A DNA stretch of 64,000 nucleotides from assembly GCA_036172245.1 (NCBI GenBank), contig JAYWIR010000045.1:434001-498000 (forward strand), written 5' to 3'. This DNA is from Raillietiella orientalis. Its lineage: Eukaryota. Numbering within the stretch: the first letter of the stretch is position 1; each line of letters starts with the position of its first letter. The translations under genes were made by a program, and so were the position numbers. This document shows, in pieces, positions 1 to 58,872 of this stretch. The notes beneath the pieces are model-generated. The model saw only the letters and a program-made list of their open reading frames with translations. It was not told where the DNA came from and made no database searches.

Positions 1-1599
1 TCTCCCAAAAGCACACAGTTCCCTCTCAGAATAAAAGAGAAGTAAAGTGTCCTGGTGTTAGGACAATCATATGTCGAAATACCATCTACTCGATGCTAAC
101 AAGTAATGAGCAAGCAGCTACTAGTTTCACAGAGTGCGTCAGCGAAAGAGGTTGCGCTGTGTTTCAGGCCCTCAAAAGTCGCCTTCATACCATTCTATAC
201 AAGGGACAGAAGGAAATTTTCCTTCCTGAATCACATTCATAAGAGAGGATGACTGATTACGAGGCGAACTATAGAAATTATCGTCTTTTTTTGTAAGCAT
301 TTAAGTGAAGATCAGAGGCGCCGTAAGAAGTTGACAAGATACCATGCTTGTTTCTATAGTGAAGAGGTATTTCGAAGTCTGTGATTACATTGATGAATAG
401 CACTGAATGGCTCCAAACGTGAGCGTCAATTTTTTCTGTTGATGTCATTTGAATTCTTCCTATAGAAGCGGCTCTGACAGCAGTTCTGCCAAAAGACTTG
501 GTGTCTGCAATTCTTGTGGTACTTTAGATTAAATCCATTTACTTTTTACTATCAATAGTATCAAACGTGGTCTAAATAAAGGAAACCTGATTTATTTAGG
601 CTGGCATACGAAAATTTTATTAAATTGAAAAAATGCAGAAGTCTATCCATAATTCATACCCTACTGCTGCTTCAATCTCACTAAGGTTCACCAAATCATG
701 ACACATAAGGATGCCCGAAAATCTCTTGCAAGCTTAGACAACTGAAGACAGTAGAATCGTTGATAATTTATCTTTTTTATCATTAAAATTAAGGGAATAA
801 CTGACCTGCAAGTTCAGATTTAGCCCCCTTATCGTTGTGGATGGGCGATTGTTCTGAGAACGTATCATAACCTCCAAATATGTTTCCTTAAACTATTGTA
901 GAAATGAATGCTGCACGGTGATTGCCGTCCCGGGAGCAAACGGAACACAGAATATCTTGTGAGGACCTCGAGAGTGTTTCAAAACTGCAATTAGCCTTCT
1001 CACTATGAAATTCCCTGACGTTAATCCATTACCTCGCACATTTAAAAGTTGATTATTCATCGTAAATAACTTCCAGTCACAAACGGAGGTCTGCCATTGC
1101 TGGATATACAAGACAAGTGTAATCAGCAGGCTTAAATTCGTACACTTGTTCCGTGAAACTTTTTCTTCTCGAGATTTCCAACACGACGTTTCAAATATGT
1201 GTAAACAGTGAAATGTCGGATATTAAACGGAACAAACAGAAACCTGTGCGATGGGCACCTGCAGGTCAATCCTGCTTGGACTGAACAAGTTCTCTTCGAA
1301 GAAGTAAATGAAAACGCTAACTAAATTTGCCATGAATATGTTTCTGCCCCAAAAAATTGAACTTAGAGAGGCATTCTATCACGAGGTATAAGGAGTTGGA
1401 AAATATTGCTCGGGGAGCTCGAAATTAGCAAAGTGTGTCGTTTGGAACGAACTGGCACTGCAGCGGGTGTTTGTAAAAAGATCTCGTAAACGATCTCGCC
1501 CAGCATCCTGTTTGCAAGCCATGCAACCCGTCAGTTGCTAAAAATCTCAAACCACGCTCTGAACGAGACCTTGTCGAAGAACTCCTTGAAGCAACCTCA

Positions 1600-3500
1600 A
1601 ATACTCCGAGCCCAGGCGACGTTTCATCGTTCGAAAACGTTTCTTCGTGCCACAGAATGTAGTTGTGTGAAAACATTGATGAGATGAAGACGAATTTGAT
1701 TCACTCTATCTTGGGAACGTGAGAAATTTTCCCCTTCTCTTGGGCACTTGATGGGACGAGTGTCGCAAATACAGATCAGTTGTGCATTTTTATTGGAGGA
1801 GTAAACAGTCTTGAAGGATCCACTTCAGAGTGCTGCCAGGGGAAAAGGCGTATTCAACAAAGTGAGGATATTGCCAATAAAACGCAAATTGCTATCTGAA
1901 AAGCTTGTCAGCTTAGCTACAGATGAATCCCAGCCAATGGTTTGTAACCCGATTACTCTAGAAGTTTACTGGAAAAACAAAAACACAATTAACATGCAAT
2001 AAGGGAGAAGGCTTGCTCCATTTTAGAAGTGCAGGCAGGGTAATGTCCACGTATGGTCCTACTCAAAAGGAGGTTGAGTAAAAAGGAGGGCACAATTTTG
2101 AAAAGCATGCATGACTGATGGGAGGATTGAAGGGAGGAGGGGAAAGTATCAAAGAGATGCGCAAAATGAAGTCTTCCCACTCCCGAAGCGTTACACTATG
2201 CGGGTGATGTCTTCTCTGTTCTTCACTTGCTCGCTCGGTGCAACAGGCAGTCTCCTGAAGTGTGGTGTCCCTCTCTTCCCAACACTTTGCTGTATGACTA
2301 CAATACCGGAGATGCAGCACAGCATGGACCGCGAAATGCACTACCGCGGTTGTGAAGAGGGGAAGAAACAAACCACTACACAAGGTCCGGGGGGGTCGAT
2401 TGGGTGCGAGAGCATTGCAGTGGCCCTCTCCCATCCCTGAAGGAGGCACCACATTCAAGAAGTGATGGATGAGGTATTATTCTATCTCGCTTCTGGCAGC
2501 TCGGGGAGCAGCTCCCGTAGTTTTACTGACGATGTCGCTAATGAATGGGAATCTTCCCATTCATTAGCAAGTCATCAGTAAAACCGTTAGCGAAAACGGC
2601 TTGTCGTGTGTTGGAGGACGAAACGAAAGAACGGAGCTGTCCACACAGATTTAGGGGATCATCACCTTTTTCTCTGGTGGTCTTAAAAAGATCTCCCAAC
2701 GCGCAATATCCCTCGGTCTCGCGCACACTCGACTCTTACAGGCTGCTGATGAGACAAATGGTCAGCAGGCTGGCCGGTCGAAGAAGATCCACCCAGAAGA
2801 TTGTCTTCCCCGTCTAATTGGGAAGAATACTTCCCACTTCCGCTAACGGTTTGGAAAAAGTAGTGGTTCTTACGGCATTACTAAAATGGATTGAAGTTTA
2901 GATGCCTGAATCCGGAAATCTTATTGAGCACCACTGCATCATACATCAAGACCATCTTTGAGCCTAGCGTCGAAGCATTAATTGTAATGCTTGTGGAAGT
3001 TAAATGTATAAATTTCATAAGAATCGTGGACTGTAATCAATTTAGAGGAGGAAATCTGAACATCTTCTCTCTTATTCTTATGTTAGGAAGTAGAGGTAAC
3101 AAAGTGTTTCTGGGAGTTCAAAGAGATTAAGTCGTTCACGAAAGATAACCCGGTCCTCAAGATGAAAAAAAAAAAAAAGAATTTGTGATCTAGCATTTCC
3201 CTTATGGTATAACGACCCATTTAGAAGAACTGGAAATGAAGCCTCGGGGTCCTGTGAAGATGGGATTTCACTTCTCTACTGAATTCTCGATACAACCAGA
3301 GGTACTCCTTCAAGTTTTCAGCTTGCGCCACAGAAAAACATCCTTTTATGAAACGTCACGCCTTGAGAATGTGTGCTCTGTCACATATGGGAAGGAGCAT
3401 TCTTTCTCGAAAATTATCCCGGCAAAATGGAGCAGTGGACTCGAGAAAATTCCAGCTGAAGTTTGCTCAAGGAAAAACAATGCAGAATCTTATTAAGATT
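1600..3500 (+). mobile_element. Decayed hAT-superfamily (Charlie/SPIN, GTF2IRD2-like) transposase relic, interrupted by an unrelated ~0.8 kb segment (~2010-2830)
   Basis: Frameshifted fragments in hAT order: FENVSS (~1630), ALDGTSVANTDQLCIFIGGVN (~1744-1806; cf. ALDESTD..DTAQL.IFIRGV), KLVSLATD (~1900-1923), HHCIIHQ CxxH motif (~2928-2949), VKCINFIR (~3000-3022), CDLAF..ITTHLEEL (~3184-3232). Stops and frameshifts present; ends approximate, no TIRs found. Confidence 0.75.
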
Positions 3501-6500
3501 GATTTCTAATTATCCATGAAGGTAAACAATCAATTAATGAAATTAGTTGATTCTTAATAAATTGAATGACGACGTGAGTATTATAATGTGAAGGAGATCA
3601 AAACCGTCAACATACAGTAAATTTTAATTGATTTTTCATTGTTTTATTAAATAGTTCACAATATAACTTTTGGATAATGGGTTTTTATTTTATACCTACA
3701 TATAAATAAGAGATTGAGTCCACTTGGGAACAGTGAATTAAAAACGACAAAGTTCATAGATATTTGATTAAATTGAGAAATAAATGATTACTAAGATCAT
3801 AATCTTTAGAGCTCTACTTTTTTGCATTCTCTTCTGCAGTTTTTTCGCTTCATGTTTTATGAATGCTATTGTTCTTTAATAAACGAGACTTGCTTTTATC
3901 TTTTTTATTTATTTTCCTTTAGCCCTTCTCCAGATCCCAGATCCCTAGATAACTAACTAATAACGGTGAAATTAAATGAATGCAAAAAAAAAAAGAGCAA
4001 GAAATAAATTGGCTGGTATAAAACTCAGTTTAAAGAATTGGTATTCGTTGTATCTAAAATTTCAACCTTCAGCTCCCCTGAGAAATGGAGTTGCCAGAAC
4101 GTTGTGACAGAATGTTCCCCACCGCTGTTCTGTTTGCACCCCATGATGCAGGAGGGGGGGGGGTGTTCATTGTAAAACAGTATTTACAAATAAAGAGTCA
4201 TATCAGAGAAAAAAGGTTTACCTTAATAGAAGAACCAAAGAATAAGATGTAAGGAATACTCAGTTTCGAGATTAACTGTGTTTCCCCAGTGTAAGGTCTG
4301 GTTATTGCATCAGGATTATTGGGGTTACTCAGAAATGCGTTACTCAGAAACACAATTCTTAAATGGGCGACTGCGTCTGCATACACTCTTGTATGCAAAA
4401 TTGGCGCAAAATTAGTTCGCAAGTGACTTTGAGGTCCTCCCATTCCAGCCCAATGCAATGAAGAGAGAGATGAAAAGTTCAGTGCAGTGTTGAGGATTTC
4501 GCCGAAATCCTGGAAACAGTGGGATCGCCGATCGCTGAGAGTAGAAGTCTGACAGCTGAAGGACAGCGAGAGAAGTAGAAATAACTGGCATAGAGAGGTA
4601 GAGGCATCCTACTCAGCGGTGGTGGCACCGGCAGCACACAGTAGTGCACTTGTTAGCGTACGAGCCTGCCATCTTTTGAAATCCTCAGTGTGGGCGAACT
4701 CTTGGCGGAAGTAAACCCAAAGGCACAAGCTGTTGCATTCTAAACGAATCAAATTCGGAACAGTGCAATGCGGGACATATATCTCTCATAGTACAAGCAG
4801 AACTTGGATTTTGCAAAAGTGAAGGAGATCGTGCCTTCGGCAAGTGGCTTCGTTTACGCAGATTGCTATGTGCCACGTCGAAAAAATTATCAAGCTGAGT
4901 GAGAAAACAATGAAAAGGACGATTGATCGATCCTTGGCAGCGGTCTTACATTTGTACTCCACCTTCAACTGCAAGGAAAATGTATTAACCTGTAGAAGTG
5001 CAAAAACACATCCTAAATCTATCGTTCAGAAAGAGAACCGAAAGAAGAAACAGATGCTTCGGCATTGCCCGCTGGAAAACTAGGACAAAAAGAAACAATC
5101 TGGCTACATAATAAGTAGCATATAAAATAGAAACACCACGCCATTTCATCTTTACTAAGAAAGATGCTGTATGAGAGAACCACCAGTGATCCAGAAATCG
5201 GTCAAGTCTCAGTCCTAGAGGCAGCAGATATGCGTCTCTTGGGAAAGCAAACTCTGGAACATCATCAGTACGATTAGGAAGGAAACAACAACATGTGAAA
5301 GGAAGGAAACAAAGAAGAGAGCATGTCCCATTCAAGAAACAAATTCATCTTTCAAACCAGTTGAAGTAATTAGTTGCATCGAGCACGCATAGGGTATATT
5401 GTAGAACCATCAAACCATGTAGAATCAAGAGCTAATGCAAATGAGAAAATACAAAGAGTGAAAGGCAAAGTAAAAGAAACTCAAGCAAAGGGAGTCTTGT
5501 GACATCAATATCGGATCAACAAACTTCAGAAAAAAGCTGTACCCTTAGTTAAGAATCAGCAAACAAACTTGAAATGCGATATATAGTTTGTTTTTGCTTT
5601 GTTTTGACTAGCATCGTGTTTGTTTTTACTTTATTTAAATAAGTTACCCCATCGCTAGTCGGAATGAAAGAAACTGGAGTAATATAAGCTGTCGATATAG
5701 AAACCTCTGGAGCTAGTGGCATGATCCTATGAGAATTTTATCTGTTATCCTGGGAAGCCTTGGCTCGATTTATCACTATACCGAGGGTACCCAATGGCCA
5801 CTATGACAAGGAATTAAAAGAATCCGTTAGTCACTAGCAGCTTGCAATGTAAAGGCATCCAAGCACTGAGATCTCAGAGCTGATAATGGGGAAAAGCCAG
5901 ATACTTACAGTTCTGACAGGAAATCATTTTCATGCTCCCTTTGTGCCATCATGTCAACATCACACAAGTCTATCTTATATGTTTACGAGTTTGGAACCAA
6001 TATATTTCTTGAAGATTATGTGTCAACATTGCTTTTCAAGGAATTTATTGAAATTACACAATGCTGGTCATGTAAATCTCACTGATATAGAAAATTTGTA
6101 ATTATTAGCAACGATAACAAACTAAAGTTTTTTTGGCTTAGTAGCATTGCATGCATAGGAGAGATGTTTCGATCACAGAAGACTGAAAGACATAAACATA
6201 TACATCATGGAAGTGATGAAAACTAGTAGGATATGAAAGTATCCCCCAAAGCAATTATAATTATATCACTTTAGAAAAAGTCCTGGTACTAGGTAAACAA
6301 TAAACTTATCTTTTGATAAACAAATAAAGATATTTTGAATTCATTATTGGAAAAAGAATAATGTACTCGAACAATACCACATTTATTGAATATATTTAGA
6401 AAATACTGACCATATTGTGTAAAAGATAAAGGTTCATTATTCATACTAATGAGAGGGTTCGCCTTTGTTAGAAATTTGCAATCAAAGAATTCTGGCATCT

Positions 6501-21968: not shown

Positions 21969-23264
21969 TTATTTATTAATGTATGATAGATTATTCCTCA
22001 AGACTTCTACAGAGGGCAATATCTTTAGTATTTTGCCAAATGCAATAGTATTGTTATTTTCACGTATAGTGAATTGTTGGCCAACAACCATCACCATTTT
22101 CCTTAATAGTGTCAAATAAACAGTAGCATATTCACCTGGCATTAACAATTCATCACCATCTAAATCTATTCTACATGCCATATTCCAAGTATTACTGAAC
22201 AACTGTTGGATATATTTGCTAGTGATGGGCCTGGTACGCCCACGATCTTCTGGGGAAAGTAAGTATATATAAGCTTGAAAATAATTGCCTGAATGCAAGC
22301 TTTTGTGCTTCACAAGACACATTCCACTGCATATCATTGGAGTCTTGACATTACGCACCAATACACCTATGTTTTCTCCGGCGTACGCTTTTCCCATCGA
22401 CTTCCAGGACACTTGTATGTCTGCTACAGAACATTTGATTTGCTTGTTAAAACCCAAAATAGTAGCTTCATCATTCTTGCATAGTGTACCACGAACTAAA
22501 GTTCCAATTACAACAGTACCTCTTCCAGGAATAGCCATCACACTATCAATTGGCAAAAGGAAAGGAGAACTGGTATCTCTTTCTGGGTTTGGTACGTAAG
22601 TATCAAGAGCATTTATTAATGCAAGAATGGAATTGACTCCTAGTTCACTAGAATCTCCCTTCAAGGCTAGTAAAGGCGAACCTTTTATAATAGGGGCTGT
22701 AAAGTCATATCCGACTTTACTAAAAAGCTCACGCATCTCAATTTCAACAAGTTCAAGCATATGTTCATCGCAGCAATCAGCTTTGCTAATGTATCCTACA
22801 ACCCACTTAATCCCAATTTGTTTAGCTAGCAACAAATGTTCCCTTGTTTGAGGCATTTCACCATCTGTTGCTGCCACCACAAGTATTGCAGCATCCATTT
22901 GTGATGCTCCTGCAATCATGTTTTTAATGTAATCTGCATGACCAGGGCAATCCATATGTGCATAATGCCGCAACTGGGAATTATAAAAGATGCGAGCAAC
23001 ATTGATTGTAATGCCTCGCTTGCGTTCTTCTGCTGCTTTATCAATGTCCTCATAACTAACAAACTTAGCCAACCTATGGTTCTCTAAAACTTTAGTAATT
23101 GCAGAAGTCAGTGTAGTTTTTCCATGATCAACATGGCCTATGGTGCCAACATTTAGATGCACTTTGGTGACATGATCAGCAGATGAACAAAGCCAACGTA
23201 CACAATGACATCTTGCTAATACAAGATGCCACACACGCTGAGCTACCATGGAAAAAACTGACAT
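21969..23264 (-). CDS. mEFTu2: Mitochondrial elongation factor Tu, EF-Tu2 paralog; intronless CDS, 431 aa (true start may be the second Met at 23249)
   Basis: Single ORF with a presequence-like N-terminus, [34 protein letters not shown]. Domain 3 [16 protein letters not shown]...LLMPGE...[16 protein letters not shown] matches recalled arthropod EF-Tu2 (Drosophila mEFTu2 type) rather than EF-Tu1. Confidence 0.9.
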
Positions 23265-23371
23265 TCTTCATAATTATTTAAAATAACCATTTGCAAGCTC
23301 TAACAATGGTGGTTACCTACAATGAGCATTTAACTCTTCCACCACTTGCAATTTCCGAAAGTATAAACACT

Positions 23372-36750: not shown

Positions 36751-38329
36751 ACCTCCTTCGTGAATCCGGTCTCTCGCGACTCTGAAGTCTTGTGCCATCT
36801 TCAGCTCATTGTTTCATTAATCCGTACCATGAACAACGCTCTCTACTGCTGAAACTCAAATCAGCATCCGCAGAACTTTCCGGAGACAAAGTCTAAAAAG
36901 TTCCTGGATTTTTTTTCTTCTTTACTCGTTCCAGATGCATCAAGGACATTTCTGATGCTCCCATAGTGAGTATAAGAAGGATGCTTCAATGCTTTCGAAG
37001 GAGCTTTTGGTTTCTGGAACGGAAAGAGCGTTTTTCGAAACGAGATTTCTTTCGACGCAGCTTTGCATCTCCCAATCCCTTAAGAGCAGTCATGGTCTCA
37101 TGCATCAGGTTTACGTTTGCAGCATGGATACGCTGCGAGGCGCCCCTGCCCCGAAACGGATTCCTCGTTATTGGCAAGATGCATTCGCTGTGTATTCGGT
37201 AGCTCGGTGTGTAGAACAGTCTTATTTACCATCGTAACAGCAGATACTGCAACGTCGACTATACTGCATGTGCAACGTGCAACGCTCTTAGCTGACAGCT
37301 TTCCCGAGTTTCGGAATGAAATCTACAAGAAAGTTCCGAAACTCGGGAAAGCTATCAGCCCGAAGGCATCTGAGCTCATCCGGAGGACTACACGGTGACC
37401 CTGATGAGAAAATCGGAAGCACATTCTTCCCCTCTCAACAACCAGCTCCTGACGACGGCAAACGCCTCTATGAGTTGAAGCCAAGGGACGACCAGTTATC
37501 TCCCGTCAGGTTCACAGCTACCACTATTGCTCTGAGAAAAAAAAAAGAGGAGGGAATTCTCAACGAGCGTGTGCATGTGGCTCGCCTCATTTAGCCTCGT
37601 CTGTTCACTGCCAACAGGATCGAGATCTGTGCTAGAAAGCTGGCTGGTTTCCGTTTCCTTGGAACCTTTTCCTGCTGTTCTGTCTCAGCGTGTCCAAGTG
37701 GCTGCTAAGAACTTGAGGAGGGTTCGAAAACTGGAATCACAAGCTATTAGCTACCACCCCCTGGTTACGAGATGCAATCAGTAAACATCATTGAGTGCAC
37801 ACGGCAACAGGGTATCCGGTAACGCACTTTGTGGCAACCGTATGAAGCGAATGGCTTTGAAAGACGCACACTGCTCTTGGCGACTTGGTGGCACACACTC
37901 GGTTAAAAATTAGCTACCTCCCCCACGCCAAACGCGTCCTGAGATTCGGATATCAAGACGCAGGAATATGTCAGGAACACACTGAAATCTGCAGGGGGCA
38001 GTGCTGACCGTCGGAGGTGTGCATCCGGATGGCACGCAGAGCTCCCTGGAAGGAAGGCCGAAAGCCTGAGCAACCGGTCAGGGGGCGAAAGTCACTCATT
38101 TGTCTCGGCAGTTGGTTCCCGCCGTCGCGCCGGGAACCAACCTTCTGGAAGAAGATTCGGGCTCAGAAACAAAACCTCCGACCGGAGATTGCGGGGTGGA
38201 GCGTGAAACGACGTCATCGGTGGAATGAACCGAGGCAACTGGCCGGTTGCTTCCCTATTCTTGGCAGTGCAGGCGCCACCTTTTTTCCAGCATTTCTGAG
38301 AGCCGCCGTCTAGCTGCTTGGGTTTTCCT

Positions 38330-39013
38330 TTCTTTTCTTTTTCTGGTTCGCTAAGTACTCAAGAACCAGGGGCCTCTCCGCATTAGGGGGACATCAAAGA
38401 GGCTCGCCTGCCACATGGTGGCTCACAAAGCTCTTTAAATAGTCGATAGCTACCAGCGTCTGCCCTTAGTTAGGGTGCAGCCCTGAAGGGGCCGCCCTAA
38501 CTAATCCAGGAAGGTTCCACGAAGGCTCTTAGTCTTGAGAGAAAACTCCGCAAGGGAACTGCTCTTGGTTTACTCCTCTAGAAAAATCTCGGAAGGGACG
38601 CTTCCAATTTTCTCCAAGGGGCTTTCCCCGAAGGAAGCAGCACGATTCTGGAGAGGAACTCTTTGAGAGAGGTAAACCAACTTCGTGTAAACGCTGTGGG
38701 AGGATCCCCCGGAGGCGGGAAGTCGTCTTCATTTGCACAACTGGAGGGGAGCTCCGAAGGAAACTGGTGGTGCTCCGTGATTCCTAGGAGGACCCGGGAG
38801 GGTCAACTTATAATCCTGACAAGTAAGCGGGGACATCTGGTTTCTAGTGCCTCACCCAAAGCCCGTGGGCCATCCAGAGCCACCGTCCCAGTGGACTCGA
38901 AACCCGCGACTCATTCCCCGTTCCCGGCCTCGATCCTTACCCGACTGGAGTTGGAACCTGCAGCGCTTGGTGCCACGCGCGGAGACCGCAGCTTCACGAC
39001 CGCCGATACGGGC
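38330..39013 (-). mobile_element. tRNA-headed SINE-like element with internal hairpin array, copy A (~9 units)
   Basis: Collinear with copies B and C. Minus-strand head GCCCGTATCGGCGGTCGTG...GGTTCCAACTCC, A-rich tail at the left end, and a degenerate flanking duplication TGCTTGGGTTTTCCT (38315-38329) / TGCTTGGGGGTTTCCT (39020-39035) consistent with a TSD. Confidence 0.75.
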
Positions 39014-41792: not shown

Positions 41793-42639
41793 TCACTCCT
41801 TTTTCGGGTCGCCATCACTACCCTTCTTCTTCTCGTCATCTCCCTCCTCGGCATCCTCGACCTGGGCGAAGATGGGGAACTCCAGCTTGAAACCCTCCTC
41901 GCACTCGTAGATGGGGCAGCAGTCCGGGTAGCGGGCGCTAGTGTTGGTCAGCTCCACAGACAGGTTGCATTTCGGCGTCTCCCCATCCTGCAGCTTGGGG
42001 ACCTGGATGGGCTCGGGTCCGCAGTCGCTGACCTGCACGGAGCGGTGCAAGGGGAGGGGGAATTGAGAGGGAGGAGGGGGGAGGGAAGAAACAGGGGGGG
42101 AGGGAGAGAGAAAAAACACCGTATGAAACCGGTTCGCAGGAACGCTTCCCTCCCTGCCCTCCTGAGACGCAGCCGCTGCTCTCCCCCCTCCCTTCCCGAT
42201 GCTCTCCCGTACCTGCTCGATGAAGCGAGGGGAATCCCCTTCGACGTTAGGCAGACAGGTGGCTATCCCGCAGTACGGGGTCAGGTCCCAGCTCTGGTTT
42301 GGGGAGTACAGCCTGTACTGAGTGGACGCGAAGCACTGGTCAGGGTAGTCTGGAAAGATCGCGCGTCAGCAGGAGGAGCCGCGGGGGGGGGGGTGAGGGT
42401 GAGGGTGAGGACGAGGAAGAGGAGGAGGAGGGGATGACGGACAGGAACAGAAGCAGGATAAAGGAAGATCGGAGAGAAGAACCTTCCGAATCACCTCTTA
42501 AGACGTCGGCAGGGATGATGCGAATGCCCAGAGCAGACGTGAAGATGTTCCTCGTCGAGTTCTTGGCAGCATGTTCCTCTGCCTTCTGGCCCGTGCTGAG
42601 GGACAGAGTCGCCACTAGCAGAGCGATGCACGCAAACAT
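41793..42639 (-). CDS. Secreted single-domain von Willebrand factor type C (SVWC) protein, 3 exons, 173 aa
   Basis: Exons 42639-42495, 42349-42213, 42032-41793 (GT-AG, in phase, 522 nt). Signal peptide MFACIALLVATLSLSTG; 8-Cys domain DQCFASTQY...SWDLTPYCGIATC...EQVSDCGP...PKC...TNTSARYPDCCPIYEC; acidic/basic tail. Confidence 0.9.
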
Positions 42640-48950: not shown

Positions 48951-49009
48951 GGATCCAGGGATGATAAAAATCCTTTGTGTTCGTTTGCTGTCGCTGCTTT
49001 CCTTCCAGA

Positions 49010-50289
49010 TTTTTTTTTTTTTTTTGGTTCTCAAGGAGTACTGAAGAACCGTTCGCCTCCAAGAAGCTCTTTAGCGCTCTCCACGCCAACCAAGAGTCTG
49101 TGTAACTCTTCAAGTTATAGGGGGGTATCTCGGGAGGGGAACGTCCTATGAATCCAGGAAGGGTTCCAGAGAGGGGAGTCCGTTCCTCTCACGCCTGGAG
49201 AGGGATCCTCAAAGGGAATCTCCTTCCTTATTCTCTTCAGAGGGACCCCTCGGAGGGGGAAGCTCCATTATTTCCTCTCTGAAGGAACCACGAAAGGATC
49301 TTCTCCTGGAATTTCTCTCTTCGGAAGGAACCGCAAGGGAACCACTCCTTGTTTCCTCCTTCTCTGAAGAGAACCCTGAAGGGATGCTTCCCAATTTTCA
49401 CTGAATGGTCCGCTCCCCGAAGGGAGCAGCCCACTTCTCGACACTCTGGAGAGCTATCGATCCACCAGCTCCGTGGTATGCGATGGAGGGTCCTCTTGGA
49501 GGAAGGAGACGGCTCCATTTGCACAACTGGAGGGGAACCCCGAAGGACTTCTTGGTTCCTGAAGGGACCCTGGAGGGTCGACTTCCAGTCCCAGACGCTC
49601 AACGGGGGCATCCAGTTTCCGGATTCCATTAGTGCTGCGCCTGTCGGCAACGTTTTAAAGGCGTTTTAAAGATCCACTTCCTGAGCGACGCCATCACGCC
49701 GACCGCTTCCCTCGCAGCACTTTGCTGTCTACGCGGAGGGACCGTGGCTGCATGGAGCAACTCCAGAGGAGGCCAGAATGACAGGGACGCCATCTATTTT
49801 GCTGTCCTCTTCATGAGGATAGCGTCAAGATGTCCTCATCTAGCAGTCATGAAACAGGAACTTGTCGGCATCCTTACAAAGTGCAGAGGGCACCTTCCAG
49901 CACACAGTGATCCCTTTCCGAACCCCCCACTTCCCCATTCTTTGACTGCGTTCTTCGTTTTATTTTTTTCTTTTTGTTTGTCTCCCCTTCTTCTGTGCTG
50001 CCGAGGCGAAGCCTGCTGGTTAGCGTGCCAGTTCCCGGCAGATTCCTCCTCGTAGTTATAAGTAACGTGGCAGGATCGAACGTCCTGCCACAGACGTGCG
50101 TCTTTATTTTACAAATAAACTCCCCGGAGTTACCGGGTGTCAACCAGTGCCGCACTCGAAGCCCGTGGCCTAACCAACGTCATCCCGCGACGTGTGTATG
50201 GAGACTCGTGACCCGTCTTGCACCCTCCATTCTCGGCGTCGATCCTTCCGCGGAGACCTCAGCCACACAGCTTAACCGCTATTGCTGGC
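49010..50289 (-). mobile_element. tRNA-headed SINE-like element with hairpin array, copy B (~12 units), split by a ~0.5 kb insertion
   Basis: 49010-49616 aligns to the tail and array of copies A/C. 50134-50289 aligns to their head region, with the B-box segment deleted. Poly-T at 49010-49025 is the A tail on the minus strand. Confidence 0.75.
49617..50133 (+). mobile_element. 5'-truncated non-LTR retrotransposon 3' fragment inserted in SINE copy B
   Basis: AALCCLRGGTVAAWSNSRGGQNDRDAIYFAVLFMRIASRCPHL is homologous to the element at 52000-52750. Flanked by a degenerate duplication CGGGGGCATCCAGT (49603-49616) / CGGGTGTCAACCAGT (50134-50148). Confidence 0.6.
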
Positions 50290-50817: not shown

Positions 50818-51999
50818 AAACAAGGAAGGCGTCCCAGGACTTCTCAGATCGGAGTGAACAAGCGTAAGCAGCGAGGAAGAAAATTACCTCCTTTTCCTCA
50901 TGGAAACGCATCCGGATGACGACCGGAATGTCCTTCGTGGTATAGCAGCGCGCAATCGGCTCGTTTCCTGTTCAGCCGAAGAAACTCTGGATCCGCTGAT
51001 GTAAACTCGCGTGAGGGAGGCTCAGCTAAGTGCCCGATGCGGACAGTGCCCACTAGGGATGGCTATGACTGCATGAGCAGCCCGGAGGGGCCTGTCAACC
51101 ACATCCTCAATGACTGCACTGGGAACTAAAAAGCAGTTACCGAGGGAGGGGCACGATGAACTGGCTGCTCCGATAGGGGAGGCTCCGCTAGGAGAGGGCG
51201 CTCTGATAGGCCCATTCCTGGAGCGGGGTCAAAACTGCGACCAGATCTGGCATTCCAGAGTAAAGGAGAAGCAACACTAGCAGACGAGATCTCCCTGCGA
51301 GCCTTCCGCTGCAGCACTAGAGGAGGCAAGATGGAGGAAGAAGAAGTACGAATTCAGAGGATTGGCTCGCCACTTCTTCGACGGAGGAGCACCAGATTCC
51401 ATCGGGCGATCTCCGTCAGATCCTTAGGAACACAAGATCAGTCCTAAGGAGACTGAGGGAACCTAAGAGATGGGAAGAGTGCATCAGGAGGCAATGGTGT
51501 GCTGCAACAGCAGATCGCTGCAGGAGGCGCAAACTGAGCCGGGTAAATCCTTGCGAGACCACAGTTTCAAGGAAAGGGAGGAGAAAGTAGAGGAGACAGC
51601 CAGACACCAAATGTAGTCGACAGTCCCCTGTCAACTCTTGCACCCTCCGGCACATCATCTTTTGTTTATGCTGGCAGAAGAAAGAACACCTGCTTCTAGC
51701 AGCGGCCAGCAGCTTTCTCCTTTTCCTCTCTTTTCTTTGAATCAGAAGATTCTGAAGGAGGCGAAGGATGCAATGGTCTTATGATTCTGAAGTCCGGAGT
51801 TCTTTTGCGTTCGTCGCTGTTTCTCCTCGGGGGTGTTCCGACGAAGGGAAAGGCATGCGCTCTTCGAAATGGCACGGCTCCGGTTGGCGCATGAGCCGTC
51901 TGGTGTGCAATGCGCCAAAAGTTTTCACCCAGCTTCTCTGGGGCGTCCATTTAAAGATAAAATAGACATTTGCAGTTTGTGCGCTGGTCCAACCACTTG

Positions 52000-52750
52000 T
52001 ATATACCCTGCCGTTTTACCGGTTCGCAGACGGGTAAGGTCCATCACAACAGCAGAGGGGAGGGGCCAAACAGAAAGAAAAATAAACAAAATGAAAATAA
52101 AACAATTTGGAGGGAAGGGAGGTACGGAAGGGATCACAGTCTGCTGGGAGAGATCCTCTGCATCCTTTGGAAGATGCAAGCGAAGTCTCTTTAGATAGAT
52201 GTCCAGGTGGGGCAATCTGACCGCTATCCGCAGAAAGCCAAGAGCGAAGTGGATAGCGTCCCTGTCGTTGGTTCCTCCGTTGGCATCGCTCCATGTTGCC
52301 ACGATTCCACGAAGGCAGCAAAGCACTGTAAGGATGTGGCTGGCTGCAGGGCGTCCCGCACAAAGAGGAACCGCTTCACGTCTCTGGGGTTTGCGGCCGA
52401 AAGAGCAGGCGCCGAAAGAGGCAGAGAGGGCATCCTGCTGTTGCTTCCGCTTATACGCCAGCGAGCGACGACGGTGGGGGAAGTGCGAGAACTGTTGCCT
52501 GCCGATGGCCTTCCGTGCTCACTGAGGACTCCGAGGAGATTCCTTGATGAACCGTTGCGAGCTCAACTCGCAGGCGTCCTTCCGCTGCACTCACCACCGC
52601 AACTGTGCGTGGTGGAAAGTCCTGCACTAGTCGGAAAAATACCTAAGCTCAGCGTTGTCCCCGGGACTTTTGTTTACTGGGAGGCAAGCGAACTGCCGGG
52701 ACGGGAAGTTGGCTTCCTTCAGAGCCCGATGAGCGAAGTTCTGTGACAAG
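52000..52750 (-). mobile_element. Non-LTR retrotransposon 3' fragment (degenerate CCHC knuckle plus 3' UTR)
   Basis: VPLCAGRPAASHILTVLCCLRGIVATWSDANGGTNDRDAIHFALGFLRIAVRLPHL followed by a T-rich 3' UTR; homologous to 49640-50060. Confidence 0.6.
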
Positions 52751-58094: not shown

Positions 58095-58872
58095 ATTTTC
58101 TTTCTTTTTTTTCTCGGGTTTTCTCTTTTCTTGGTTTGTTAAGTGCTGGAGAACCATTCTGCTCCTTAGGGAAGAAAGAAGCTCACAAAGCTCCTCAACA
58201 CTACCCACGCCATCTGAGGTTGCGTACAACTCCTCAGGCTATTAGGGGTAACCCTGGAGGGACTACTCTATGAATCCAGGAAGGCTCCAGAGGAAGAAGT
58301 CCGTTTTCTCTTACGCCTGGGAGGGAACTCTGAAGGGAAACCTCTTCCTCATTCTCTCCGGAGGCACTCCCTGGAGGGGGCCTCTCTTGGAATTTCCTGT
58401 CCAGAAAAAAACCCTCAAGGGAACCGCTCCCTGTTTTCTTCTCCTCTGAAGAGAACCCTGAAGGAACGCTTTCAAATTGCTCTGAATGGTCTGCTTCCTG
58501 AAGGGAAGCAGAGCACTTCTAGACGCTCTGGAGAGGTATCGATCCACCAGCTTCGTGATGCGCGATGGAAGTTCCTCTTGGAGGGAGGAGACGGCTCCAT
58601 TTGCACAACCGCAGGGGAAAGACCCCGAGGGGAACCGGCTCCTTGATTCTTAAAAGCACCTCGGAGGGCTAGCCTTCGATCCCAGCCAGTCAACGAGCTC
58701 ATCCAGTGTCGCACCGCAAGCCTGTGGGCCAACCAGAGTCGTCCTGCGGGAGGAACTCGAAACCTACGGCGCACCCCCGTTCTCGGTGTCAATCCTTCCC
58801 CGGGTGGGATTCGAACTCGCAACGCTTGGCACCAAGCTCTGAGGTCACAGCCACACGACCGCCAATGCGGGC
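58095..58872 (-). mobile_element. tRNA-headed SINE-like element with hairpin array, copy C (~11 units; best-preserved head)
   Basis: Minus-strand head GCCCGCATTGGCGGTCGTGTGG...GCGAGTTCGAATCCCACCCGGGG (58872-58798) with an A-box-like and a canonical B box (GAGTTCGAATCC). Body collinear with A and B; A-rich tail at the left end. Confidence 0.8.

Follow-up and report, generated by a model that had tools for sequence, protein, structure and literature searches.

The window, meaning the whole stretch of 64,000 nucleotides that was analysed, is split in composition: positions 1-34000 are gene-rich with 30-44% GC, while positions 38000-64000 are repeat-rich with 50-62% GC. Three copies of one SINE, all in the GC-rich part, were recovered (starting at 58095, 48961 and 38304), in agreement with the three copies mentioned in the reading from the letters alone. 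The extent first given for the element, 58095-58872, holds for the copy found there (copy 1, the element under study), but the full element reaches about 90 nt further in the 3' direction. Features are listed below by window position and strand.

58095..58872, minus: SINE copy 1; 81% identity to the family consensus, 3'-truncated at an internal A-rich tract
58798..58872, minus: tRNA-derived head of copy 1; best match tRNA-Arg(CCT) among tested tRNAs of its own genome, the 5' end coinciding sharply with tRNA position 1
58808..58816, minus: Pol III B box of copy 1; exact, the upstream A box degenerate
58754..58763, minus: second B-box-like motif of copy 1, lying where the 3' half of the tRNA is partly duplicated
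58698..58715, minus: LINE target site of copy 1 (model position ~170), empty and partly deleted here; target of a putative L1/Tx1-type LINE subfamily
58238..58681, minus: 11-unit tandem array of copy 1; units of ~40 nt, each one bulged hairpin in the consensus
58647-58681, 58608-58644, 58566-58598 and 58526-58560, minus: array units U1, U2, U3 and U4
58482-58519, 58444-58478, 58399-58434 and 58357-58384, minus: array units U5, U6, U7 and U8
58316-58351, 58279-58314 and 58238-58273, minus: array units U9, U10 and U11
58130..58237, minus: pre-tail region of copy 1, with two more predicted stems
58095..58129, minus: internal A-rich tract at which copy 1 stops; ~90 nt more in complete copies
48961..50270, minus: SINE copy 2; 84% identity in the body, one extra unit, split at the LINE target site
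49642..50143, plus: 3' end of a putative L1/Tx1-type LINE inside copy 2; 5'-truncated, antisense to the SINE, with a ~13-nt duplication at 49629-49641 and 50144-50156
38304..39012, minus: SINE copy 3; 77% and 71% identity, internal deletions taking out about two units

Elsewhere in the window, an intronless ORF for a divergent mitochondrial EF-Tu lies at 21969-23267 on the minus strand, the best of its listed matches being from insects and crustaceans at 54-66% identity, by which the host is taken to be an arthropod. The ORF at 41793-42365 (minus strand) gave a weak match to a single von Willebrand factor C domain (22.9 bits, below the cut-off). At 37282-37368 on the plus strand, a near-perfect hairpin of ~26 bp (z -7.75; sub-threshold Rfam mir-81 match, 31.9 vs 54.5 bits) is a candidate microRNA precursor or small inverted-repeat element.

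Anatomy, age and interrupted copies of the family

The full element is ~870 nt long and consists of a tRNA-Arg-like head, a body, a terminal stem-loop, a T-run and poly(A). When the head was compared with tRNAs of its own genome (30 of 62 loci tested), tRNA-Arg(CCT) was the best match, at z 7.5 against 5.9 for the next. The 5' end is sharp, 137 of 267 matches beginning within the first 50 nt. The head first described as Pol III-type does carry an exact B box, at 58808-58816 on the minus strand, and a second B-like box, and the strict A-box pattern was unmatched. ARAGORN made no tRNA call on the decayed head of copy 1, and Rfam gave no match on the element. No T4 run precedes the terminal T5 on the sense strand, while the antisense strand has six. 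The longest sense ORF has 118 codons, so the element is non-coding.

Most of 14 complete copies, picked by eye, end in a constant stem-loop of ~45 nt followed by the T-run and poly(A). The majority of copies stop earlier, either at the internal A tract, as copy 1 does, or near model position 820, where the cluster of ends is partly produced by the tail query used. Target-site duplications (TSDs) were scored at 2 of 74 elements against a null of 0.5%, and in a looser test at 2 of 40 against 4.8%, the age of the copies and their uncertain 3' ends lowering the power of both. Only the copies L030 and L089 have clear duplications (12 nt), and that of L089 overlaps the last bases of the SINE, as in microhomology priming. 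An inverted piece of the element's own head was seen just upstream of a few copies, for example L044 and L135 (2 of 107 under a strict score; 0 of 500 in the null).

Rare TSDs, a 3' stem-loop and an internal array would also suit a non-autonomous DNA element of the Helentron/DINE type, a class marked by central tandem repeats, subterminal inverted repeats, a 3' stem-loop, a T-rich insertion site and no TSD. Such an identity in place of a SINE is barely credible here, as the tRNA head runs from position 1, the poly(A) is variable, the two ends have no inverted match (score 12) and 107 5' flanks show no T bias. The element behaves as a tRNA-derived SINE in the sense of SINEBase and very probably belongs to that class. 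The first description, of a tRNA-headed SINE-type element with an ordered hairpin body, was borne out by the head match (z 7.5), the dispersed high copy number, the poly(A) and the 11-unit array. A 3' tail shared with a partner LINE was sought in one LINE 3' UTR (score 18 vs a shuffled mean of 15.8), six LINE loci and 30 RT loci, a small part of the LINEs of the genome, and none was found among these. The leader of a LINE may have been the source of the SINE body.

The 210-Mb genome was searched with three queries, each of which had 987-5,306 candidates; 40 of these were scored per query, and their identity was 66-85%. A 19-mer of the body, allowing up to 2 mismatches, had 1,621 matches in the genome and the control had 2. 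Since 65 of 114 sampled copies would pass this filter, the calibrated count is ~2,800 copies or more, and the family comprises at least 1,600 and probably ~3,000 copies. The copies sampled throughout were the best-scoring matches and not random ones, and counts were made after removal of 13-17 loci that overlapped or were recent duplicates, of 3 fragments that were nearly identical and of one badly bounded copy. The family is old and dead, because 247 fragments lie at a median of 18.4% from the consensus, none of them closer than 9%, and the tree of copies is star-like. Substitutions in the copies are ordinary transitions with no CpG excess. CpG decay was considered as the cause of the loop variants and ruled out, the C>T rate being 0.104 in CpG and 0.111 outside it.

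A LINE 3' end interrupts copy 2; relatives of this LINE carry APE and RT domains in intact ORFs, and its homologues carry PF13966, the L1-type zinc finger. APE plus RT, a C-terminal CCHC and a fixed target with TSD mark the target-specific L1/Tx1 LINEs, and the insert agrees with them. Judged by domains and target site, it is probably a LINE of the L1 group, perhaps of Tx1 type. Among loci found with LINE queries, its subfamily ends in antisense at model position ~170, upstream of the hairpin array, in 19 of 26 and 7 of 8 cases (26/34 together). The loci with an antisense LINE at this fixed site are 49642-50143 of the window, L053, L062, L086 and L154-L195. The inserts measure about 220 to 2,020 nt owing to varying 5' truncation, and the SINE resumes upstream of the junction, with a short duplication, in 31 of 34. 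A few loci each show other LINE subfamilies in sense orientation at SINE positions ~522-553, ~635 and ~818. Another member of this LINE group, from a subfamily more distantly related, has left a 3' fragment at 51925-52390 (minus strand) of the window, where no overlap with the SINE was scored. Younger, apparently L1/Tx1-type subfamilies with long open frames (L241, L242, L196-L210) have 3' ends repeatedly at shared sites in other LINE copies and may be further target-specific lineages. L244 and L246 also bear an RT but are of another type, and Pfam gave no APE domain in them.

The hairpin array and the origin of its folds

The pattern CYCYNNRGRG has 9 matches in 58252-58632, and its 39 matches in the window compare with 15 +/- 4.6 by chance (0 of 100 shuffles reach 39). 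Eleven palindromes had been picked out in copy 1, and they correspond one-to-one with 11 units of ~40 nt, whose axes lie at 58663, 58627, 58581, 58542, 58500, 58460, 58416, 58373, 58332, 58295 and 58255. All the listed sites map to units, but those at 58284 and 58526 are 3' arms and not apices. The doublets described as paired palindromes were not upheld: each unit is one bulged hairpin of 30-36 nt and the second palindrome is mostly its 3' arm, the beginning of which pairs with the upstream purine linker when consensus units are folded singly. The loops had been read as UUCA, UCCA, UUCG or UUGA. UUCG does stand at consensus apices, whereas UUCA and UCCA at the apices of copy 1 are products of decay. 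In 7 of 11 units the consensus apex is cUUCGg or cUCCGg (UUCG or UCCG closed by C-G), and this capped-loop motif occurs 12 times on the strand of the head, 3 times on the other strand and about once in shuffles. Loops of the UNCG type are unusually stable in RNA.

The array arose by tandem duplication of a ~40-nt unit, since autocorrelation of the consensus peaks at 39-41, 78-83 and 118-125 nt; TRF detects no tandem array in copy 1. The unit itself contains a doubled 12-mer. The units are now ~50% identical to one another, each with a bulged hairpin of 8-14 pairs, often capped cUNCGg. Their outer stems differ from unit to unit and yet are complementary (GGAAG/CTTCC, ATGGAG/CTCCAT, GAAG/CTTC, GGAG/CTCC, AGGAA/TTCCT, TAGGG/CCCTA). 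Units have been lost or gained freely, the array measuring 240 to 610 nt among 87 copies.

The fit of each arm to its partner was compared by permutation of consensus units. Own arms folded at -15.6 and swapped arms at -11.3 kcal/mol (p<1e-5). The difference remained with outer arms alone (p=7e-5), was absent from a linker-centred control (p=0.84) and kept its sign in 90 of 100 single copies. It also persisted without U3, whose consensus is a homopolymer average (p=3e-5), without U3, U4 and U10 (p=0.001) and with a split-half consensus (p=5e-5). As unit axes were picked by eye, joints were also allowed to slide by three bases, whereupon p weakened to 0.01-0.05, or to 0.04-0.27 when only swapped joints slid. 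In 540 simulations of neutral duplication and decay, which lack sub-duplications and slippage, the own-minus-swapped gap never went beyond -2.1 (observed, -4.35), and units simulated at matched divergence kept -7.8 to -10.6 kcal/mol. Because own arms fit better than the arms of other units, and by more than in any of the 540 simulations, the comparison argues that duplication alone is insufficient to explain the hairpins. Substitutions diagnostic of subfamilies also avoid stems (4 of 15, vs 56% of positions paired, p=0.02), a result that rests on S1 and S5 only, as S3 and S4 probably mix paralogous units (copy 2 has an extra unit). There is thus moderate evidence that an active master kept its hairpins.

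The pure by-product explanation, in which one palindromic unit was duplicated and decayed neutrally and pairing comes at no cost from the alternation of C-rich with G-rich runs, accords with the ~40-nt period, with the lack of signal across copies (below), with the smaller arm effect once joints slide and with weak global folding. Folding of copy 1 alone does not surpass that of shuffled sequences (z -1.3 for the sense and -1.7 for the antisense strand), the whole-body consensus has an MFE z of -1.6 (local z -2.8), and the hairpins of U6, U7 and U10 have a probability of 0.03 or less in the full-length ensemble. We consider it unlikely all the same, given the null linker-centred control and the arm specificity and stability that the simulations did not reach.

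Among genomic copies, 254 compensatory double changes were seen over 113 pairs in 244 fragments, where 259 were expected; for inner pairs the numbers were 82 and 93.5. Arm swaps between copies were null, and the top linked pairs of a third covariation test reflect subfamily linkage and not stems. An RNAalifold-type fold of the gappy 14-tail alignment returned nothing. The T-arm of the tRNA, taken as a control, was null as well; the covariation test is therefore blind to selection at the level of the master and reports only neutral decay after insertion. Loops were conserved at 0.818 against 0.845 expected from context, and paired, loop and core positions were no better conserved than linkers. 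In the absence of covariation and loop conservation across copies, it follows that inserted copies decay neutrally. The sequence-only reading had named such an absence, with palindromes as a by-product of unit duplication, as evidence against its proposal: the 244 fragments do lack both signals and the array is of tandem origin, but there is more covariation between units than duplication followed by neutral decay would produce.

These data bear on two roles that had been suggested for the array. The ordered, similar hairpins with UNCG-type caps would suit an RNA that serves the host, from one or a few conserved copies, as a decoy or as a multivalent scaffold for protein. No copy among the 247 fragments is within 9% of the consensus, however, the tree is star-like, loops are not conserved in excess, units come and go (array span 240-610 nt) and paired, loop and core positions fare no better than linkers in the copies, which makes this role very unlikely. 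There is no sign of a host job for the family, and the array would serve the element itself. Still less probable is the idea that retroposition spread an array of sites at which a dimeric protein binds double-stranded DNA: cores of 10 bp are near-palindromic and regularly spaced, and LINE endonucleases do recognise fixed sites in the SINE, but what the units have in common is pairing and not sequence, the cores are not conserved in the copies and the array does not contain the principal LINE target.

The main rival to selection on the master RNA is a mutational one: quasi-palindromes would provoke template switches, in replication or whenever the master is reverse-transcribed, by which the sequence of one arm replaces that of the other. 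Such switching is documented for RNA stems (PMC8794818). Nearly all pairs are Watson-Crick on both strands, and internal U-U mismatches of the commonest unit became full pairs in several units. Bulges and U-U loops nevertheless persist in U2, U7 and U9, subfamily changes avoid stems instead of altering both arms, and no trace of switching was found in 244 genomic fragments that are 18% diverged. Genomic copies show no renewed matching of stems (ratio 0.98), evidence against repair that acts on DNA alone; as template switching is silent in the copies, only its reverse-transcription-step version survives. In that form the mechanism is a serious possibility, if a doubtful one. The two strands fold almost equally well (-172 for sense, -167 for antisense) and G-U pairs are rare (4 of 117 vs 2 of 117), so that hairpins of RNA and of DNA are not told apart; a G-U vs A-C strand test of common variants gave 8 sense-only, 3 antisense-only and 8 breaking changes.

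We hold with moderate confidence that selection maintained the chain of short helices in the master RNA because it made the element itself more stable and better able to retropose. The master would be transcribed by Pol III from the head to the terminal T-run, and its RNA copied through target-primed reverse transcription by an ORF2 protein of L1/Tx1 type. Priming would often take place at internal A tracts, a step proposed to account for the fixed 5' and ragged 3' ends of the copies. Selection would act on the master RNA only and favour short helices, each closed locally and joined to the next by a single-stranded, A-rich linker. Folded in this way, a Pol III transcript that is long and GC-rich would stay compact and stable without long duplex, and its head and tail would be accessible to the LINE machinery. 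More tentatively, and with rather low confidence, the UNCG-capped domain of ~11 hairpins in the master lineage may have bound a host or LINE protein multivalently and so gained access to the retrotransposition machinery. If so, it would be a functional counterpart of the SRP-binding fold of Alu or the VNTR of LAVA, built de novo by tandem duplication, and the same SINE would also be a landing platform for several site-specific LINE subfamilies.

Comparison with known systems

The view that no described family was at hand held in the literature searched, which took in few subscription journals, and in Rfam; no description of the family was found in either. With the tRNA-derived SINEs of SINEBase (PMC3531059, consulted in part) the element shares a head derived from a Pol III RNA, a body of unknown origin, a simple tail, thousands of copies and a non-coding nature. 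In contrast to the entries described there, of 75-662 nt, it measures ~870 nt, carries ~11 ordered and diverged hairpin units and rarely has TSDs, the comparison being by description of the class. The quasi-oligomeric SINE CHRS, compared likewise by description, has a motif of ~20 nt with no structure reported in the portion of PMC3531059 used, whereas here the units are of 40 nt with unit-specific complementary arms.

SVA and LAVA, in the sections of PMC4432496 consulted, resemble the element in being L1-dependent and non-autonomous, with an ordered central array of 39-40-bp units; here too the ~40-bp units are ordered and variable in number, a likeness in working only. In LAVA the array determines mobilisation and a role of RNA structure has been speculated. 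It is to this 39-40-bp VNTR, where such a role is speculated and partly shown, that the reading of selection on the master RNA is likened. SVA and LAVA differ in being hominoid and Alu/CT-headed, with no tRNA head and no per-unit hairpin reported in those sections, and homology is not claimed. Identity with a VNTR composite was rejected, as the element has no CT-hexamer/Alu-like 5' domain, bears a tRNA head and resides in an arthropod. In 2015 the authors of PMC4432496 knew of no non-LTR elements with complex internal tandem repeats other than VNTR composites, beside which a hairpin-array SINE would be an independent arthropod case.

Tx1-clade LINEs target other transposons, Tx1L in Tx1D and Tx1-Mar in Mariner-N4_AMi (PMC4494074, consulted in part). 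The LINE seen here is like them an APE-RT element at a fixed site in another repeat, with independent 5' truncations and TSDs. The targets given in that part of PMC4494074 are DNA transposons, LTR elements, snRNA/rRNA genes and microsatellites, whereas here the target is a SINE in an arthropod; no description of a SINE-targeting Tx1 was found in the literature searched, with its few subscription journals.

The paralogous units record, within one element, how structure persisted while sequence did not, and so give access, as few cases do, to the selection that acts on the master RNA of a SINE. Set beside these systems, the element is a familiar kind of genomic parasite of unusual build, its middle being a chain of ~11 related hairpins.
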